A DNA stretch of 4,853 nt from a virus (taxonomy: Duplodnaviria > Heunggongvirae > Uroviricota > Caudoviricetes): IMG/VR virus record IMGVR_UViG_2681813316_000023, positions 1-4,853 of that record; one strand, 5' to 3'. This document shows positions 2-4,853 of the stretch, in pieces. The translations under genes and the position numbers were made by a program. The notes under the pieces are model-generated. The model saw nothing but the letters and a program-made list of their open reading frames with translations. It was not told the DNA's origin and did no database searches. Within the stretch, counting starts at the first letter, position 1. Every line of letters starts with the position of its first letter.

Positions 2-121
2 ATAAAAGACAGTCTGACACTGGGACTGAATGCGCTGACGCTGACGGATGTTACAAAAAATGCAGCGTATGGCGTTGAGATAGAAAGTCTGATGCTGGAG
101 ATAAATGCACCGGCAGCATAA
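2..121 (+). CDS. 3' end of an upstream gene (partial, last 39 codons, ends ...LEINAPAA); product unknown, possibly the late-region gene preceding the lysis cassette
   Basis: Only frame 2 is open from the window edge to TAA at 119-121 (followed by a second TAA at 122-124); the other + frames hit stops within ~75 nt. Too short to assign a family. Confidence 0.3.
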   Translation: MKDSLTLGLNALTLTDVTKNAAYGVEIESLMLEINAPAA

Positions 122-158
122 TAAAAAAAGCCAGCGCCCACTCTGAAGGACGCTGGCT
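121..158 (-). terminator. Intrinsic-terminator-like hairpin oriented for the minus strand (stem 129-136/151-158, A7 tract on the + strand = U tract on the minus transcript)
   Basis: agccagcg (129-136) pairs perfectly with cgctggct (151-158), with two further C:G pairs possible inside the loop; the T/U run lies only on the minus-strand side. Confidence 0.5.
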
Positions 159-333
159 AAAACGGGTAGATGTACTTCACATGATACTTATATTTGGCAG
201 TACATTTTCTGACAGACAGTGACGGATGTTGTCAAGATATTGTGTCATTTATAACCTGAATCAGGGGTTGGTCGGAATGTTATCTGGCATTTTTAGCAGA
301 GCCTGAATGCCATAATCACGGCTCCCGGAGTTG

Positions 334-368
334 GCCGTCAGTGGGTGACACTGGCGGCTTTTTGTTTT
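334..368 (+). terminator. tR'-like rho-independent terminator in the late leader immediately upstream of the holin
   Basis: 10-bp stem gccgtcagtg (334-343) / cactggcggc (349-358) with one G:U, 5-nt loop ggtga, followed by TTTTTGTTTT (359-368). Confidence 0.6.
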
Positions 369-413
369 CCTTTACTTTCATTTTCTGTCGGCGGTGACGG
401 AGACATACATCAG

Positions 414-620
414 ATGGAAAAAATCACAACGGGTGTGTCATACACCACGTCAGCGGTGGGGACGGGATACTGGTTACTGCAGCTGCTGGACAAAGTCTCT
501 CCGTCCCAGTGGGTGGCAATAGGTGTACTGGGGAGTCTGCTGTTTGGCCTGCTGACGTATCTGACTAACCTGTATTTCAAAATCAGGGAGGACCGCCGTA
601 AGACGGCGCGGGGAGACTAA
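414..620 (+). CDS. S: Class II holin (pinholin, phage 21 S21 / E. coli essD family), 68 aa
   Basis: Translation [68 protein letters not shown] closely matches my recollection of S21(68)/EssD: two TMDs, the first Gly/Ala/Ser-rich, and a charged C-terminus ...[13 protein letters not shown]. Start placed at ATG 414, not the track's GTG 345, because GTG 345 lies inside the terminator hairpin and homologues begin at M-(D/E)-K. GGAG at 399-402. Confidence 0.85.
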
Positions 621-624
621 AGCG

Positions 625-1614
625 ATGAAGAAAAAATACGAACTGGTTGTTAAAGAGATAAATAATTACCCGGATAAGATTGCTGTTACTGTGGCACTTG
701 AAATTGGCGGGCATCCGTCGTTGTTGTTGCCACATGTGGCGATTAGTCTTGACCGTACTGAAGGTGCCACGCTGGAGTTCTACGAAGCTGAGGCGAAAAA
801 ACAGGCGAAGCAGTTTTTCATGGATATTGTTGCCGGGTTATGCGAAGGGGATGAACCGTCACCGGAAAAGCGCCCCGTAATTTTAGATGCGCAGGATGTA
901 TTGATAACCTACAAAGGAAAGCTACCGGGAAGAATTACTTGTTCTCTGAAGATGCCGCCGTCAACACTGCGGTCAGAAAAAGATGATGTTGAATCGCGTA
1001 TTGAAAAACTGGAGTGCTATATCGCTGAATTGAAAAAAAGCACCCCAACAAAAAATGAGGTGCTTGCAGCAGACGAAATGAAAGAAGCTATTCCTGATCG
1101 CGCGGCGAATCTAAGCTGCGCTTCATGGTTGAAAGAGCATCTTCAGCAGCCTGAAAAAAAACGCCGCGATGAGCAGTTTGCTGCGTTTTACGATTATTGC
1201 CGGAAAGTGATGAGCAGAAATCTCGCAGAGTGTTTCAGTATTCATAATGATAATTTCAGTGACCTGGAATGGGAGTGTAACCGGCCATCCTTTGTTGTAT
1301 CCGGTGATGCTGGGAAAATAACCATCTCAGAAAATGGAAAAGTAACACCGCCATCGCACCAGCATAGTGAGGAGCTCATTGAATTTGCCATTGATTACCT
1401 GAAGAACAATAAAAAGCAGGGGCTGATGAAGTGCATTGGTCGTTGCATGGGATATCTGCAGATAGCTGCTGAGATTGAAGCGCTGGCCAGTGGTGCGGAC
1501 AAGGATGCAGTTGTGCGGAAGGCTCTTCTTCGTGATTTTGATAATCCGCCCTTTAAAAAAGTGCCGGCTTACTGGTTTCATCCAGGACTGACTTATCTTA
1601 AAGGACGTATATAA
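625..1614 (+). CDS. Hypothetical 329-aa soluble protein inserted between holin and endolysin (moron/cargo gene); family not recognised
   Basis: Uninterrupted 329-codon ORF co-oriented with the lysis genes; ATG 625 lies 4 nt after the holin stop, with GGGAGA at 611-616. No signal peptide or TMD evident. Charged coiled-coil-like middle (about residues 110-180) and a Cys-containing C-terminal half. Confidence 0.75.
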   Translation: MKKKYELVVKEINNYPDKIAVTVALEIGGHPSLLLPHVAISLDRTEGATLEFYEAEAKKQAKQFFMDIVAGLCEGDEPSPEKRPVILDAQDVLITYKGKLPGRITCSLKMPPSTLRSEKDDVESRIEKLECYIAELKKSTPTKNEVLAADEMKEAIPDRAANLSCASWLKEHLQQPEKKRRDEQFAAFYDYCRKVMSRNLAECFSIHNDNFSDLEWECNRPSFVVSGDAGKITISENGKVTPPSHQHSEELIEFAIDYLKNNKKQGLMKCIGRCMGYLQIAAEIEALASGADKDAVVRKALLRDFDNPPFKKVPAYWFHPGLTYLKGRI

Positions 1615-1656: not shown

Positions 1657-2190
1657 ATGAACACCAAAATCAAATACGGCCTGTCGGCTGCCGTTCTGGC
1701 GCTGATTGCCGCTGGTGCGCCTGCGCCTGACATTCTCGACCAGTTTCTGGATGAAAAGGAAGGTAACCACACCACGGCATACCGTGATGGTGCGGGGATC
1801 TGGACCATCTGCCGTGGTGCCATCATGGTGGATGGTAAACCTGTTGTTCCAGGCATGAAGTTGTCGACGGCAAAATGCGCTCAGGTTAACGCCATTGAGC
1901 GTAATAAGGCGCTGGCATGGGTGGAGAAAAACATCAAAGTGCCATTGACCGAACCACAGAAAGCGGGGATTGCGTCATTCTGTCCGTACAACATTGGCCC
2001 CGGTAAGTGTTTCCCGTCGACGTTTTATAAACGAATTAATGCAGGCGATCGCAGGGGGGCGTGTGAGGCGATTCGCTGGTGGATTAAGGACGGTGGCAGA
2101 GACTGCCGTATTCGCTCAAACAACTGTTACGGTCAGGTATCCCGTCGCGACCAGGAGAGTGCGCTGGCGTGCTGGGGAATTGACAGATAA
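1657..2190 (+). CDS. R: SAR endolysin, T4-lysozyme-like muramidase (GH24), phage 21 R21 / P1 Lyz family, 177 aa
   Basis: N-terminal weakly hydrophobic Gly/Ala-rich signal-anchor-release segment YGLSAAVLALIAAGAPAP. Catalytic triad in the canonical context E35-G-N...R-D44-GAG-IW-T50. Downstream conserved blocks ...KINAGD..GACEAIRWW... match GH24 SAR endolysins as I recall them. Confidence 0.9.
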   Translation: MNTKIKYGLSAAVLALIAAGAPAPDILDQFLDEKEGNHTTAYRDGAGIWTICRGAIMVDGKPVVPGMKLSTAKCAQVNAIERNKALAWVEKNIKVPLTEPQKAGIASFCPYNIGPGKCFPSTFYKRINAGDRRGACEAIRWWIKDGGRDCRIRSNNCYGQVSRRDQESALACWGIDR

Positions 2191-2349: not shown

Positions 2350-2487
2350 GTGTTTGATTTTAGCAAACTGATTCGGGAGATTCGAGTGATGGCTGAAAAA
2401 TTATCCACCTGGAAGTTCATTCTTATCTGGCTGGTGTTTGTGATTATGGCCTCCGGTTATTTCATCGGTCAGATACGCTGGTGGTGA
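2350..2487 (+). CDS. Small single-TMD membrane peptide (45 aa from GTG 2350, or 32 aa from ATG 2389), translationally coupled to Rz; function unknown
   Basis: AAAGGAG (2338-2344) lies 5 nt upstream of in-frame GTG 2350; a second in-frame start ATG 2389 follows GGGAGA (2375-2380). Product ...MAEKLSTWKFILIWLVFVIMASGYFIGQIRWW has one ~21-residue hydrophobic helix. TGA 2485-2487 is 1 nt from the Rz ATG 2489. Confidence 0.35.
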   Translation: MFDFSKLIREIRVMAEKLSTWKFILIWLVFVIMASGYFIGQIRWW

Positions 2488-2488
2488 A

Positions 2489-2926
2489 ATGAACCGCGTA
2501 CTGTGCGTGGTCATCATTGCCCTGCTGGTGGCCTGTGGTGCGCTTAGTCTGGGGCTGAATCATTACCGTGATAACGCCATAACCTACAAAGAGCAGCGCG
2601 ATAAAGCCACATCCACAATCGCTGATATGCAGAAGCGTCAACGTGACGTAGCAGAACTCGATGCCAGATATACAAAGGAGCTTGCTGATGCTAACGCGAC
2701 TATCGAAAGCCTCCGTGCTGATGTTTCTGCTGGGCGTAAGCGCCTGCAAGTCGCCGCTACCTGTGCAAAGTCAACGACCGGAGCCAGCGGCATGGGCAAT
2801 GGAGAAAGCCCAAGACTTACAGCAGATGCTGAACTCAATTATTACCGTCTCCGAAGTGGAATCGACAAGATAACCGCGCAGGTCAACTACCTGCAGGAGT
2901 ACATCAGGACGCAGTGCTTAAAATAA
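2489..2926 (+). CDS. Rz: Rz i-spanin (inner-membrane spanin subunit), 145 aa
   Basis: N-terminal TMD followed by NHYRDNAITYKEQRDKA...MQKRQRDVAELDARYTKELADA...AGRKRLQV, near-collinear with lambda Rz as I recall it. Contains the embedded +1-frame Rz1. Confidence 0.9.
   Translation: MNRVLCVVIIALLVACGALSLGLNHYRDNAITYKEQRDKATSTIADMQKRQRDVAELDARYTKELADANATIESLRADVSAGRKRLQVAATCAKSTTGASGMGNGESPRLTADAELNYYRLRSGIDKITAQVNYLQEYIRTQCLK
2688..2873 (+). CDS. Rz1: Rz1 o-spanin (outer-membrane lipoprotein spanin subunit), 61 aa, embedded in the +1 frame of Rz
   Basis: AAAGGAG (2674-2680) sits 7 nt before ATG 2688. Signal peptide MLTRLSKASVLMFLLGVSA with lipobox L-G-V-S-A-C, then a Pro-rich mature region CKSPLPVQSQRPEPAAW...LNSIITVSE resembling lambda Rz1. 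ATG 2661 from the ORF track was not used (no SD, over-long signal peptide). Confidence 0.8.
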   Translation: MLTRLSKASVLMFLLGVSACKSPLPVQSQRPEPAAWAMEKAQDLQQMLNSIITVSEVESTR

Positions 2927-3342: not shown

Positions 3343-3963
3343 ATGAAAGATCAAGATGTTAGGTTCGCGGTGCATCATAAGCTTTTGAAAGAATCGCATT
3401 TAGATCCAGACTGCCTTGTGGTCGATGAATTTTCCATATCCCTTGGCGCCAGTAGAGCAGACATTGCTGTAATAAATGGTGTTATACACGGGTACGAGCT
3501 CAAAAGTGAATATGACTCTTTGGAGCGTTTGCCTCTTCAAATCAAGCATTATTCTTCTGTAATGGACAAGGTTACTCTTGTCGTAGCTGAGAAACATCTT
3601 GAGGGAGCATTAAAGTTAATCCCAGGTTGGTGGGGCGTTAAAACGGTTTCTGTTGGGCCAAAAGGCGCCATTCTTATAAAGCACATGCGTGGAGAAAAGC
3701 TTAATCGAAACCATGACACATTGATGCTCGCTCAATTGCTTTGGAAAGATGAATGTATCGACGTACTTGAACGATGGGGCTATTCCAAAGGAATCAAAAG
3801 CAAGCCCCGATTTGAGTTATGGAATATTATTGCGGAAAATATTCCAATAGCGAATCTCAGGCTTGAAGTCAGAACAGCCTTAAAGAAACGCGTAGGCTGG
3901 AAAGTTAAGGCTTGGCAGGCTGAGTCTGCGCCAACCAATAAAGCTGTCTCACGACTAACGTAA
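3343..3963 (+). CDS. PD-(D/E)xK (restriction-endonuclease-fold, Hjc/Mrr-like) nuclease-domain protein, 206 aa, on an AT-rich island
   Basis: Long ORF in AT-rich DNA with a strong SD. Motif E29 (VVDEF) ... D40 (RADIAVING) ... E52-L-K54 (VIHGYELKS) is the arrangement of PD-(D/E)xK nucleases. The C-terminal ~110 residues are basic and Trp-rich with no motif I recognise. Confidence 0.75.
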   Translation: MKDQDVRFAVHHKLLKESHLDPDCLVVDEFSISLGASRADIAVINGVIHGYELKSEYDSLERLPLQIKHYSSVMDKVTLVVAEKHLEGALKLIPGWWGVKTVSVGPKGAILIKHMRGEKLNRNHDTLMLAQLLWKDECIDVLERWGYSKGIKSKPRFELWNIIAENIPIANLRLEVRTALKKRVGWKVKAWQAESAPTNKAVSRLT

Positions 3964-4774
3964 TATGGTGCGTATGTGCAACTTTACGCCATTCTTTAGA
4001 GCCGCCAGATTTGTTAGCGCCTAATGATCTTTGGTAAATGTAATCATCCCCCCAACTAAATTTGGAACCAAAGACTTGATACTCTGGCGAACTAACAAGG
4101 GTAGTACATAAGTTTTTAGTTTGGCCCCATCCATTTCCTTTAACTGCGGTACCTTTTACAAAGATCCATGAGGTATCGTTCGAATATCTCACTGAGACAT
4201 ACTGAGACATGAAGCGTGGGTCTACGCTCGTAATGGTAGAGCTAGCGGTGGGATAATCACTAAAACTTGGCGTTCTTCCATTGCTAAAATTCTGTACTAC
4301 GTACATCCAAAGATCGTATTCATGGCGCGGAATATGATGAACTTGATGTTGCGGTATCCCTGCCTGTGATGCTGGGTATGCGGTTGAAGATAAAATCAAG
4401 TTTCTCCACGGAGCTTGGCCTGATAATGTGTTGACCATGCTTAATGCTTGTTGTTTTAAACTATCAGTTGCGTTTTGAATATCTCCAAAATCAATGATTA
4501 CATCAATTAAACTAGGATGAATATTTAAGTGGTTAACCAGACTTGTGAATTGGTGCCATGTCTGGGGGGTGATAGATATAGCGAGCCCATTGATTAAGTT
4601 GCGTTGAACAGCATGTATATAGTTTGTTGAATATGCGGGAGAAACAACAGGGATAATTTCCTTACCATTTACTCTAGCATCTTGGATACACATATCTAGA
4701 GGATGATGGCGGCTCGAACCATGTTTATCTAAATATTTAACATCCAGCAAAACAGGACGATTGATCCTACCCAC
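3905..4774 (-). CDS. Hypothetical 289-aa protein on the AT-rich island, convergent with and 3'-overlapping the nuclease-like gene; function unknown
   Basis: 870-nt uninterrupted minus-strand ORF in AT-rich sequence, where long ORFs are unlikely by chance. First start is GTG at 4774 with no convincing SD (next ATG is codon 27), so the start is uncertain. No TMD or signal peptide; no motif I can assign. Confidence 0.65.
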   Translation of the reverse strand: MGRINRPVLLDVKYLDKHGSSRHHPLDMCIQDARVNGKEIIPVVSPAYSTNYIHAVQRNLINGLAISITPQTWHQFTSLVNHLNIHPSLIDVIIDFGDIQNATDSLKQQALSMVNTLSGQAPWRNLILSSTAYPASQAGIPQHQVHHIPRHEYDLWMYVVQNFSNGRTPSFSDYPTASSTITSVDPRFMSQYVSVRYSNDTSWIFVKGTAVKGNGWGQTKNLCTTLVSSPEYQVFGSKFSWGDDYIYQRSLGANKSGGSKEWRKVAHTHHITLVVRQLYWLAQTQPAKP

Positions 4775-4853
4775 GTAATATGGACACAGGCCTAAGCGAG
4801 GTTCTGGTTTTCAAATTGTTCCGGACTGAGGCCGCCACACCAACTGTGCCGCC

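Follow-up and report, generated by a model that had tools for sequence, protein, structure and literature searches.

The Q-modified RNA polymerase of phages lambda, 82 and 21 passes downstream terminators. In the curated annotation of phage 21, pR' (39506-39534), a Q-binding element, a pause element and a terminator, tR' (39543-39590), come directly after Q, about 275 nt and two tRNA genes 5' of the holin gene S21; the announcement of the phage 21 and 434 genomes discusses neither the terminator nor start codons (Feiss et al. 2022, PMC9119081). Stx2a phages have the order Q-stx-nanS-p-S, their nanS-p gene being inducible with mitomycin C (PMC10462455). The same region of related prophages encodes small RNAs: PasA and PasC are Northern-validated, Hfq-dependent sRNAs of the EPEC E2348/69 prophages, each encoded antisense in the gap separating an esterase gene from its downstream neighbour (Pearl Mizrahi et al. 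2021, PMC8550237; table S6), and EcOnc51/52 are the EHEC homologues of PasA. An esterase-Pas-holin-lysozyme arrangement has been described, with YYZ-2008 and 2B8 named as Pas carriers (Zhu, Shabalina and Storz 2026 preprint, bioRxiv 10.64898/2026.05.13.724894); both are among the best matches of the DNA considered here, a 4,853-nt stretch of a Caudoviricetes record (IMGVR_UViG_2681813316_000023; hereafter the window). A preliminary description of the window had placed a terminator just upstream of a single-start pinholin gene and read the two as a late leader of the lambda type.

The lysis region and its pinholin gene

Judged from its open reading frames and a Pfam scan, the window is a lambdoid lysis region (Table 1), followed beyond Rz by a convergent sce7726 / Beta-protein pair and then the end of an IS3 element. 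A megablast search with positions 1-700 matched 346 phage records, mostly Stx-converting phages and including H-19B, YYZ-2008, 2B8 and phage 434, and in the matched records the gene 5' of the holin region is a NanS-p / SASA sialate esterase. DNA homologous to the esterase fragment at the window's left end is annotated as yjhS/SASA esterase in 434, YYZ-2008, Stx1 phages and E. coli B-1109, and the 3' end of the esterase gene in prophage PP5 of E2348/69 is 99% identical to it. Among complete E. coli genomes, none carries the whole window in one piece (best match 78%). We consider it likely, as one part of the overall reading developed below, that positions 122-413 are the esterase-holin intergenic region of a lambdoid, Stx-phage-like prophage, several kilobases inside a Q-dependent late operon. 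Two known elements lie within it: PasC on the minus strand and an intrinsic terminator on the plus strand. A search for small protein genes in 160-413 found just ORFs of 21-26 codons, none with support, and an Rfam scan of the whole window (E <= 1) gave a chance rimP-leader match on the minus strand (2257-2346) as its sole hit, leaving the PasC locus unmatched.

Table 1. Positions of the features discussed, numbered from the first nucleotide of the window.
Feature	Position	Strand	Basis or detail
NanS-p / SASA-family sialate O-acetylesterase, 3' end	2-121	+	last 40 codons; stop TAA 119-121
PasC intrinsic terminator	122-158	-	terminator scan; stem-loop 158 to 129, U run 128 to 122
PasC sRNA gene, Hfq-dependent, about 78-79 nt	123-200	-	probe match and coordinate mapping
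Candidate PasC promoter	206-235	-	-35 TTGACA 235 to 230, 18-nt spacer, -10 CAGAAA 211 to 206
TTGTCA-15 nt-TATAAC promoter candidate	229-255	+	judged a chance match
Intrinsic terminator 5' of pinholin gene	333-369	+	stem 333-343/349-359, loop 344-348, U-tract 360-369
Shine-Dalgarno GGAGA	399-403	+	read from sequence; RBS annotated at the homologous place in 434
ATA at S21-71 (antiholin) start position	405-407	+	alignment with B-1109 and phage 21
Pinholin S, 68 aa, single start	414-620	+	Pfam PF04971
329-aa ORF, N-terminal DUF1327 domain	625-1614	+	
Phage lysozyme (Phage_lysozyme), hydrophobic N-terminus MNTKIKYGLSAAVLALIAAGAPAP	1657-2190		Pfam scan
Rz with embedded Rz1	2489-2926		

The holin matches PF04971, 'Bacteriophage P21 holin S', with E = 1.4e-32 (111.9 bits against a cut-off of 26), and the annotation of its homologues in 434 and H-19B reads 68-aa pinholin / putative holin. 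The single start codon reported earlier, with D-I-H-Q in frame before it (GAC ATA CAT CAG), had been framed correctly, but the first reading overlooked that the ATA stands at the position of S21 Met1: in alignment, the window has ATA CAT CAG ATG, B-1109 ATG TAC CAG ATG and phage 21 ATG AAA TCA ATG. The two in-frame starts three codons apart that make a dual-start gene are absent from the window. Between GGAG and the ATG at 414 there are 11 nt, but just 2 nt separate it from the ATA at 405, a spacing that makes ATA an unlikely start; with no usable Met1 codon, lysis timing would rest on the intrinsic behaviour of the pinholin rather than on an antiholin of the S71 type, the gene being, in our reading, a single-start 68-aa allele equivalent to S21-68. 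The contrast that the preliminary description drew with dual-start S21 holds to the extent that ATA replaces the Met1 ATG, but the allele is not unusual. Across 123 loci with the holin start pattern, M-x-x-M-E-K occurs in 93 and D-I-H-Q-M-E-K in 20, with other upstream codons in 10 (mostly unrelated sequences); 933W, H-19B and 434 have the single-start form as their common allele, and every locus of the window's type also has the esterase-Pas block.

The gene usually found between holin and endolysin encodes about 116 aa (351 nt in B-1109), as against 329 aa in the window; the first 100 residues of the long form are a DUF1327/YdfR domain (E = 8e-39), the remainder has no Pfam or PADLOC match, and a form 96% identical occurs in the Stx2a phage Stx2_95. 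This ORF is apparently the part absent from the best matches among complete E. coli genomes. Between the endolysin gene and Rz lies a second strong terminator-like hairpin on the plus strand (2281-2313; 14 pairs), and 3' of it a 32-codon ORF (2389-2487, plus strand) encodes the hydrophobic peptide MAEKLSTWKFILIWLVFVIMASGYFIGQIRWW and ends just 5' of the Rz start; B-1109 has an annotated 138-nt hypothetical gene at this site. The sce7726-family gene (3343-3963, plus strand; PADLOC 'cll', E = 4e-31) and the Beta-protein family gene (3905-4774, minus strand; PF14350; PADLOC PD-Lambda-2_C, E = 1e-25), the latter lacking its 5' part, are convergent and overlapping between Rz and the expected terminase site, and together look like a candidate moron for anti-phage defence. 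At its right end (4764-4853) the window holds the end of an IS3-family element present in thousands of copies across E. coli genomes, which apparently truncates the Beta-protein gene (289 aa in the window versus 355 aa in B-1109).

PasC on the opposite strand

Over positions 60-364 the window and the PasC locus of E2348/69 PP5 form an ungapped alignment of about 99% identity, so that the published PasC coordinates (NC_011601, 1290909 to 1290832, minus strand) map to window 200 to 123; the 25-nt PasC Northern probe, CGCTGGCTAAAACGGGTAGATGTAC, is an exact match to window 151-175. A terminator scan of the minus strand finds 11 pairs (8 G-C) and then TTTTTTT, and the RNA folds into a small 5' hairpin plus this 11-pair terminator hairpin with its U7 tail (z = -3.2). 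Its location, between the sialate esterase and holin genes and antisense to both, is that of the PasA/PasC family, as is the 3' end with stem-loop and poly-U, a terminator and likely Hfq site. By these sequence matches, the minus-strand RNA encoded from 200 to 123 is the published PasC, whose expression and Hfq dependence were demonstrated in E2348/69 only (PMC8550237). In the published EPEC data this minus-strand sRNA is the only abundant short RNA described at the esterase-holin spacer, and annotation of such spacers should include a PasA/PasC sRNA on the opposite strand.

PasC is presumably transcribed from the TTGACA / CAGAAA promoter of Table 1. A relaxed promoter scan gives its -35 hexamer as a perfect TTGACA; the spacer has a TG at 214-213, the predicted +1 falls near 200, in agreement with the published PasC 5' end, and TTGACA together with a downstream CTGTCTGT..AAAA block is retained in the diverged paralogous unit of 434 and H-19B, which have at the PasC site a PasA-type double unit about 150 nt longer. 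The proposed -10 is weak, and the 5' end of the related PasA may arise by processing, as the preprint suggests, so the promoter may lie further upstream. An alternative, CTGTCA-17-TATAAG (215 to 210 / 192 to 187, minus strand), was rejected as the main PasC promoter because its start would fall inside the mapped RNA. The convergent sRNAs of Tree et al. 2014 were likewise set aside, as they belong to another late-region site, after the moron beside pR', and EcOnc51/52 are absent from the main text of that paper.

Seen from the plus strand, the PasC terminator hairpin (129-158) is flanked by A-runs and is therefore not a terminator in that direction; a plus-strand RIL-seq fragment from uninduced EPEC, corresponding to window 76-251, runs through it. 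Since 129-158 cannot stop plus-strand transcription, polymerase leaving the esterase gene meets its first terminator at 333-369. Within the esterase coding region, positions 89-99 of the plus strand read CTGATGCTGGA, which is the PasA target-site motif reported for E2348/69 esterase mRNAs in the RIL-seq motif table, raising the possibility that the PasA/PasC family regulates its own neighbouring gene.

The terminator and its distance from Q

A terminator scan of the plus strand finds a stem-loop at 333-359 with 11 pairs, 7 of them G-C, and a 5-nt loop, followed by TTTTTGTTTTC: the G+C-rich stem, short loop and U-run (TTTTTGTTTT) directly 3' of the stem that make up an intrinsic terminator. The centroid fold has -20.5 kcal/mol, and a 61-nt segment containing the terminator has z = -2.4, with equal folding in 3 of 200 shuffles. 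About 45 nt separate the end of the U-tract from the holin ATG, and the stem overlaps neither the Shine-Dalgarno sequence nor the start codon. Scan, fold and the covariation described next all bear out the terminator of the preliminary description, with its stem now counted as 11 pairs.

We searched viral contigs for the holin start sequence and compared the 130 nt 5' of each locus. Homology near the holin extends to 51 of 63 distinct upstream sequences, behind several unrelated upstream contexts, and all 51 carry the hairpin at a near-constant distance from the holin start. An alignment of 24 distinct hairpins has 95% of its cells paired, with compensatory changes in 5 of the 11 stem pairs; none of 500 shuffles scored as high for covariation, and when partner columns were slid as a control, pairing fell to 27-70%. 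This pattern indicates that the structure of the stem is under selection. Most variants, that of the window included, have a canonical U-run right after the G+C-rich stem; in some homologous variants the U-tract is weak, as in CTCCTGTTGTTG, and these may terminate poorly, their hairpin possibly retained for some other reason. The annotation of phage 434 has a 'terminator' at the homologous site (6488-6524 of locus L001; OL657226 45673-45709), and phage 21 has an equivalent strong hairpin, then CUUCUUUUUUU, about 55 nt 5' of S21. Taken as sequence evidence, these comparisons assign the terminator to the pinholin module itself, as a mobile component with covarying stem pairs that phage 21 has as well. 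Our literature searches found no prior mention of it in these terms, and a full-text search for terminators between Q and the holin gene in Stx phages returned no papers.

Two individual loci deserve separate mention. The phage 21 hairpin (1255-1315 of locus L006, from OL657228) lies 3' of two tRNA genes and aligns with the window terminator; the curated record OL657228 does not label it a terminator. In E2348/69 PP5 (locus L127, about 2575 and 4880), ISEc13 and IS200C are inserted exactly at the U-tract of the plus-strand terminator, parting the holin gene from it, and the sequence immediately upstream of the holin gene resumes beyond the insertions.

The likeness to the lambda arrangement of pR', short RNA and tR' did not survive inspection of the neighbourhood: the gene upstream is a sialate esterase, not Q. 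Q and, where annotated, pR'/tR' lie about 4-6 kb upstream in 434, H-19B, Stx2_95 and E. coli B-1109. The 434 genome has a Q82-like gene with a terminator right behind it about 3.6 kb 5' of the terminator examined here, and the esterase gene and three small membrane-protein genes, one of them TciB, occupy the interval; H-19B has Q about 4.5 kb upstream, with stx1AB between, and an antiterminator gene lies about 5.4 kb upstream in B-1109 and about 6.4 kb upstream in Stx2_95. The window holds only 120 nt of the esterase gene, and we infer from these relatives that Q lies kilobases upstream in its own element too. With an esterase gene upstream and Q distant, the element is not a pR'-short RNA-tR' leader. 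The terminator is real and conserved, and it is internal to the late operon rather than a leader at the operon start. The proposal that Q antitermination is needed to reach the lysis genes remains reasonable for efficient access, though not by way of an adjacent leader; in a mosaic lambdoid prophage, a terminator ahead of the lysis genes should be called tR' only once Q has been located.

Signals that a leader would need are equally hard to find. The suggested comparison with pR'/qut regions yielded nothing in its phage 21 part, a search of the window for the phage-21 Q-binding element giving no match within 3 mismatches, a result that applies to the phage-21 type of Q. The sigma70 candidate has the hexamers attributed to it, TTGTCA (229-234) and TATAAC (250-255) with 15 nt between them, but not the standing of a promoter. 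It is the sole 10/12 match in a relaxed scan of 122-413, and when the intergenic region is shuffled with its dinucleotides preserved, 15% of the shuffles contain a 10/12 match with a spacer of 15-19 nt; TATAAC has C in place of the conserved T at the final -10 position, and no plus-strand promoter passes a standard promoter scan. We rejected it on its frequency in shuffles, its short spacer, the missing final T and the standard scan. The minus-strand TTGACA, read as its reverse complement, covers nearly the same bases as TTGTCA, offset by one position.

Proposed role, alternatives and comparison with known systems

RNA-seq of uninduced EPEC covers the homologous PP2 locus, where mean counts are 102 for the esterase gene, 3879 for pasA, 3.5 for holin, 3.2 for endolysin and 1.0 for Rz. 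Per nucleotide this amounts to a roughly 3-fold fall at the holin gene and a larger one beyond it, at very low counts and in a PasA-type locus rather than the window itself; the drop across the terminator is modest and only suggestive. Hfq-bound plus-strand RNA from the Pas-holin spacer is present in EPEC RIL-seq data (PMC8550237) and, with the fragment corresponding to 76-251, implies that ordinary polymerase does move toward the holin gene. Given that Q-modified polymerase reads through terminators, guarding the lysis genes is the most likely role for 333-369. The overall reading that we consider likely, which includes the placement of 122-413 within the late operon, is that the terminator shields the lysis cassette from transcription that has not been antiterminated, while letting Q-modified polymerase pass.

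Under this reading, PasC would be transcribed toward the esterase gene from its TTGACA promoter and end at its own terminator (158 to 129) and U-run. In the lysogen, 333-369 would block ordinary polymerase arriving from upstream before it reaches S, R and Rz, whether on the esterase transcript, which would run antisense through PasC, or on transcripts from moron promoters. After induction, Q-modified polymerase from a pR' several kilobases upstream would ignore the terminator, and the lysis genes would be expressed. A second and compatible role may be to form the 3' end of the esterase mRNA, with a tail antisense to PasC. A terminator that moves with the module fits this picture, as morons between pR' and S would make a local guard useful against accidental lysis.

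Some of these observations could be arranged differently. The terminator might serve mainly as the 3' end of the esterase mRNA, producing a 3'UTR of about 245 nt, fully complementary to PasC and ending in an Hfq-binding hairpin and U-tail, for antisense or sponge control of PasC or for control of the esterase by PasC, with shielding of the lysis genes a by-product. That 129-158 does not terminate plus-strand transcription, leaving 333-369 as the first stop after the esterase gene, accords with this, as do 668 RIL-seq chimeras that join PasA to plus-strand RNA from the 3' region of the PP5 esterase gene (window 76-251), and the pairing of plus-strand RNA from the Pas-holin spacer with PasB, also by RIL-seq. 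The hairpin is, however, equally conserved before pinholin genes with no esterase or Pas gene preceding them, and in phage 21 it follows tRNA genes; it tracks the holin, not the esterase. We regard this account, which is compatible with an insulator role, as unlikely to be the main one. Less likely by a good deal is that the hairpin stops no transcription and works in the S mRNA itself, either stabilising it as a 5' stem-loop or serving as a processing site, to tune holin translation and lysis timing: the stem is kept where the U-tract is poor, and its distance from the start codon is conserved, but most variants, including the window's, have a canonical U-run after a G+C-rich stem, which stands clear of both the Shine-Dalgarno sequence and the start codon.

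The original proposal, in which a late-type plus-strand promoter in 160-330 would yield a short leader RNA that terminates at 333-369 when Q is not acting, on the model of lambda pR'-6S RNA-tR', can draw on a real terminator near S, on the presence of TTGTCA and TATAAC, and on the Hfq-bound plus-strand RNA from the Pas-holin spacer. It is nevertheless very improbable, for the neighbouring gene is an esterase, the terminator at the tR' position of 434 is about 3.6 kb further upstream, and phage 21 too has its full pR'/tR' annotation directly after Q; the promoter match is at chance level, the window lacks the phage-21 Q-binding element, and the DNA concerned is where a validated sRNA of the minus strand has its promoter region. 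Least probable of all is that the holin is still dual-start, with ATA 405 as a weak near-cognate start giving a trace 71-aa antiholin-like product. The ATA does sit exactly at the S21 Met1 position, and near-cognate codons can support very low-level initiation in E. coli. Against it, GGAG ends too close to ATA for initiation, the I-H-Q extension lacks the kind of residue, lysine, to which the inhibitory effect of S21-71 is ascribed, and the curated 434 annotation has the 68-aa product only.

The guard role leaves room for a further idea, which we hold to be doubtful: that the esterase mRNA tail, convergent PasC and the pinholin-linked terminator form one regulatory unit. Were that so, plus-strand transcripts ending at 369 would contain the full complement of PasC and an Hfq-binding 3' end, and would titrate PasC or be degraded together with it; the terminator would then couple read-through of the prophage late region to the host sRNA network besides guarding the lysis genes. 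Every element of the locus has already been annotated or published, and the finding is an ordinary one whose importance beyond correct annotation is slight.

Set beside the lambda and phage 21 late leaders, the element shares an intrinsic terminator 5' of the lysis genes that Q-modified polymerase would be expected to override. Those leaders adjoin Q, whereas the window element follows an esterase gene, kilobases from Q in its relatives, and, unlike them, it has no credible plus-strand promoter and no phage-21 Q-binding element. The holin resembles S21 of phage 21 in family (PF04971) and in its length, that of S21-68, and downstream of it come a lysozyme with a hydrophobic, SAR-like N-terminus, a candidate SAR endolysin, and then Rz/Rz1; S21 differs in its dual start (S21-71 antiholin / S21-68 holin), the window holin having no upstream ATG. 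The PasC locus of E2348/69 PP5 has the same orientation (esterase >, pasC <, holin >) and the same terminator and U-run, with few differing positions over 60-364, but there ISEc13 stands right behind the plus-strand terminator and parts the holin gene from it, whereas in the window the holin gene follows directly. Phage 434 (OL657226; PMC9119081) has the same terminator in position and in hairpin sequence save for U-tract length, the same RBS and the same 68-aa single-start pinholin; it differs in the stretch from the esterase gene to the terminator, which is about 150 nt longer in 434 through a PasA-type double unit and holds one PasC-type unit in the window.
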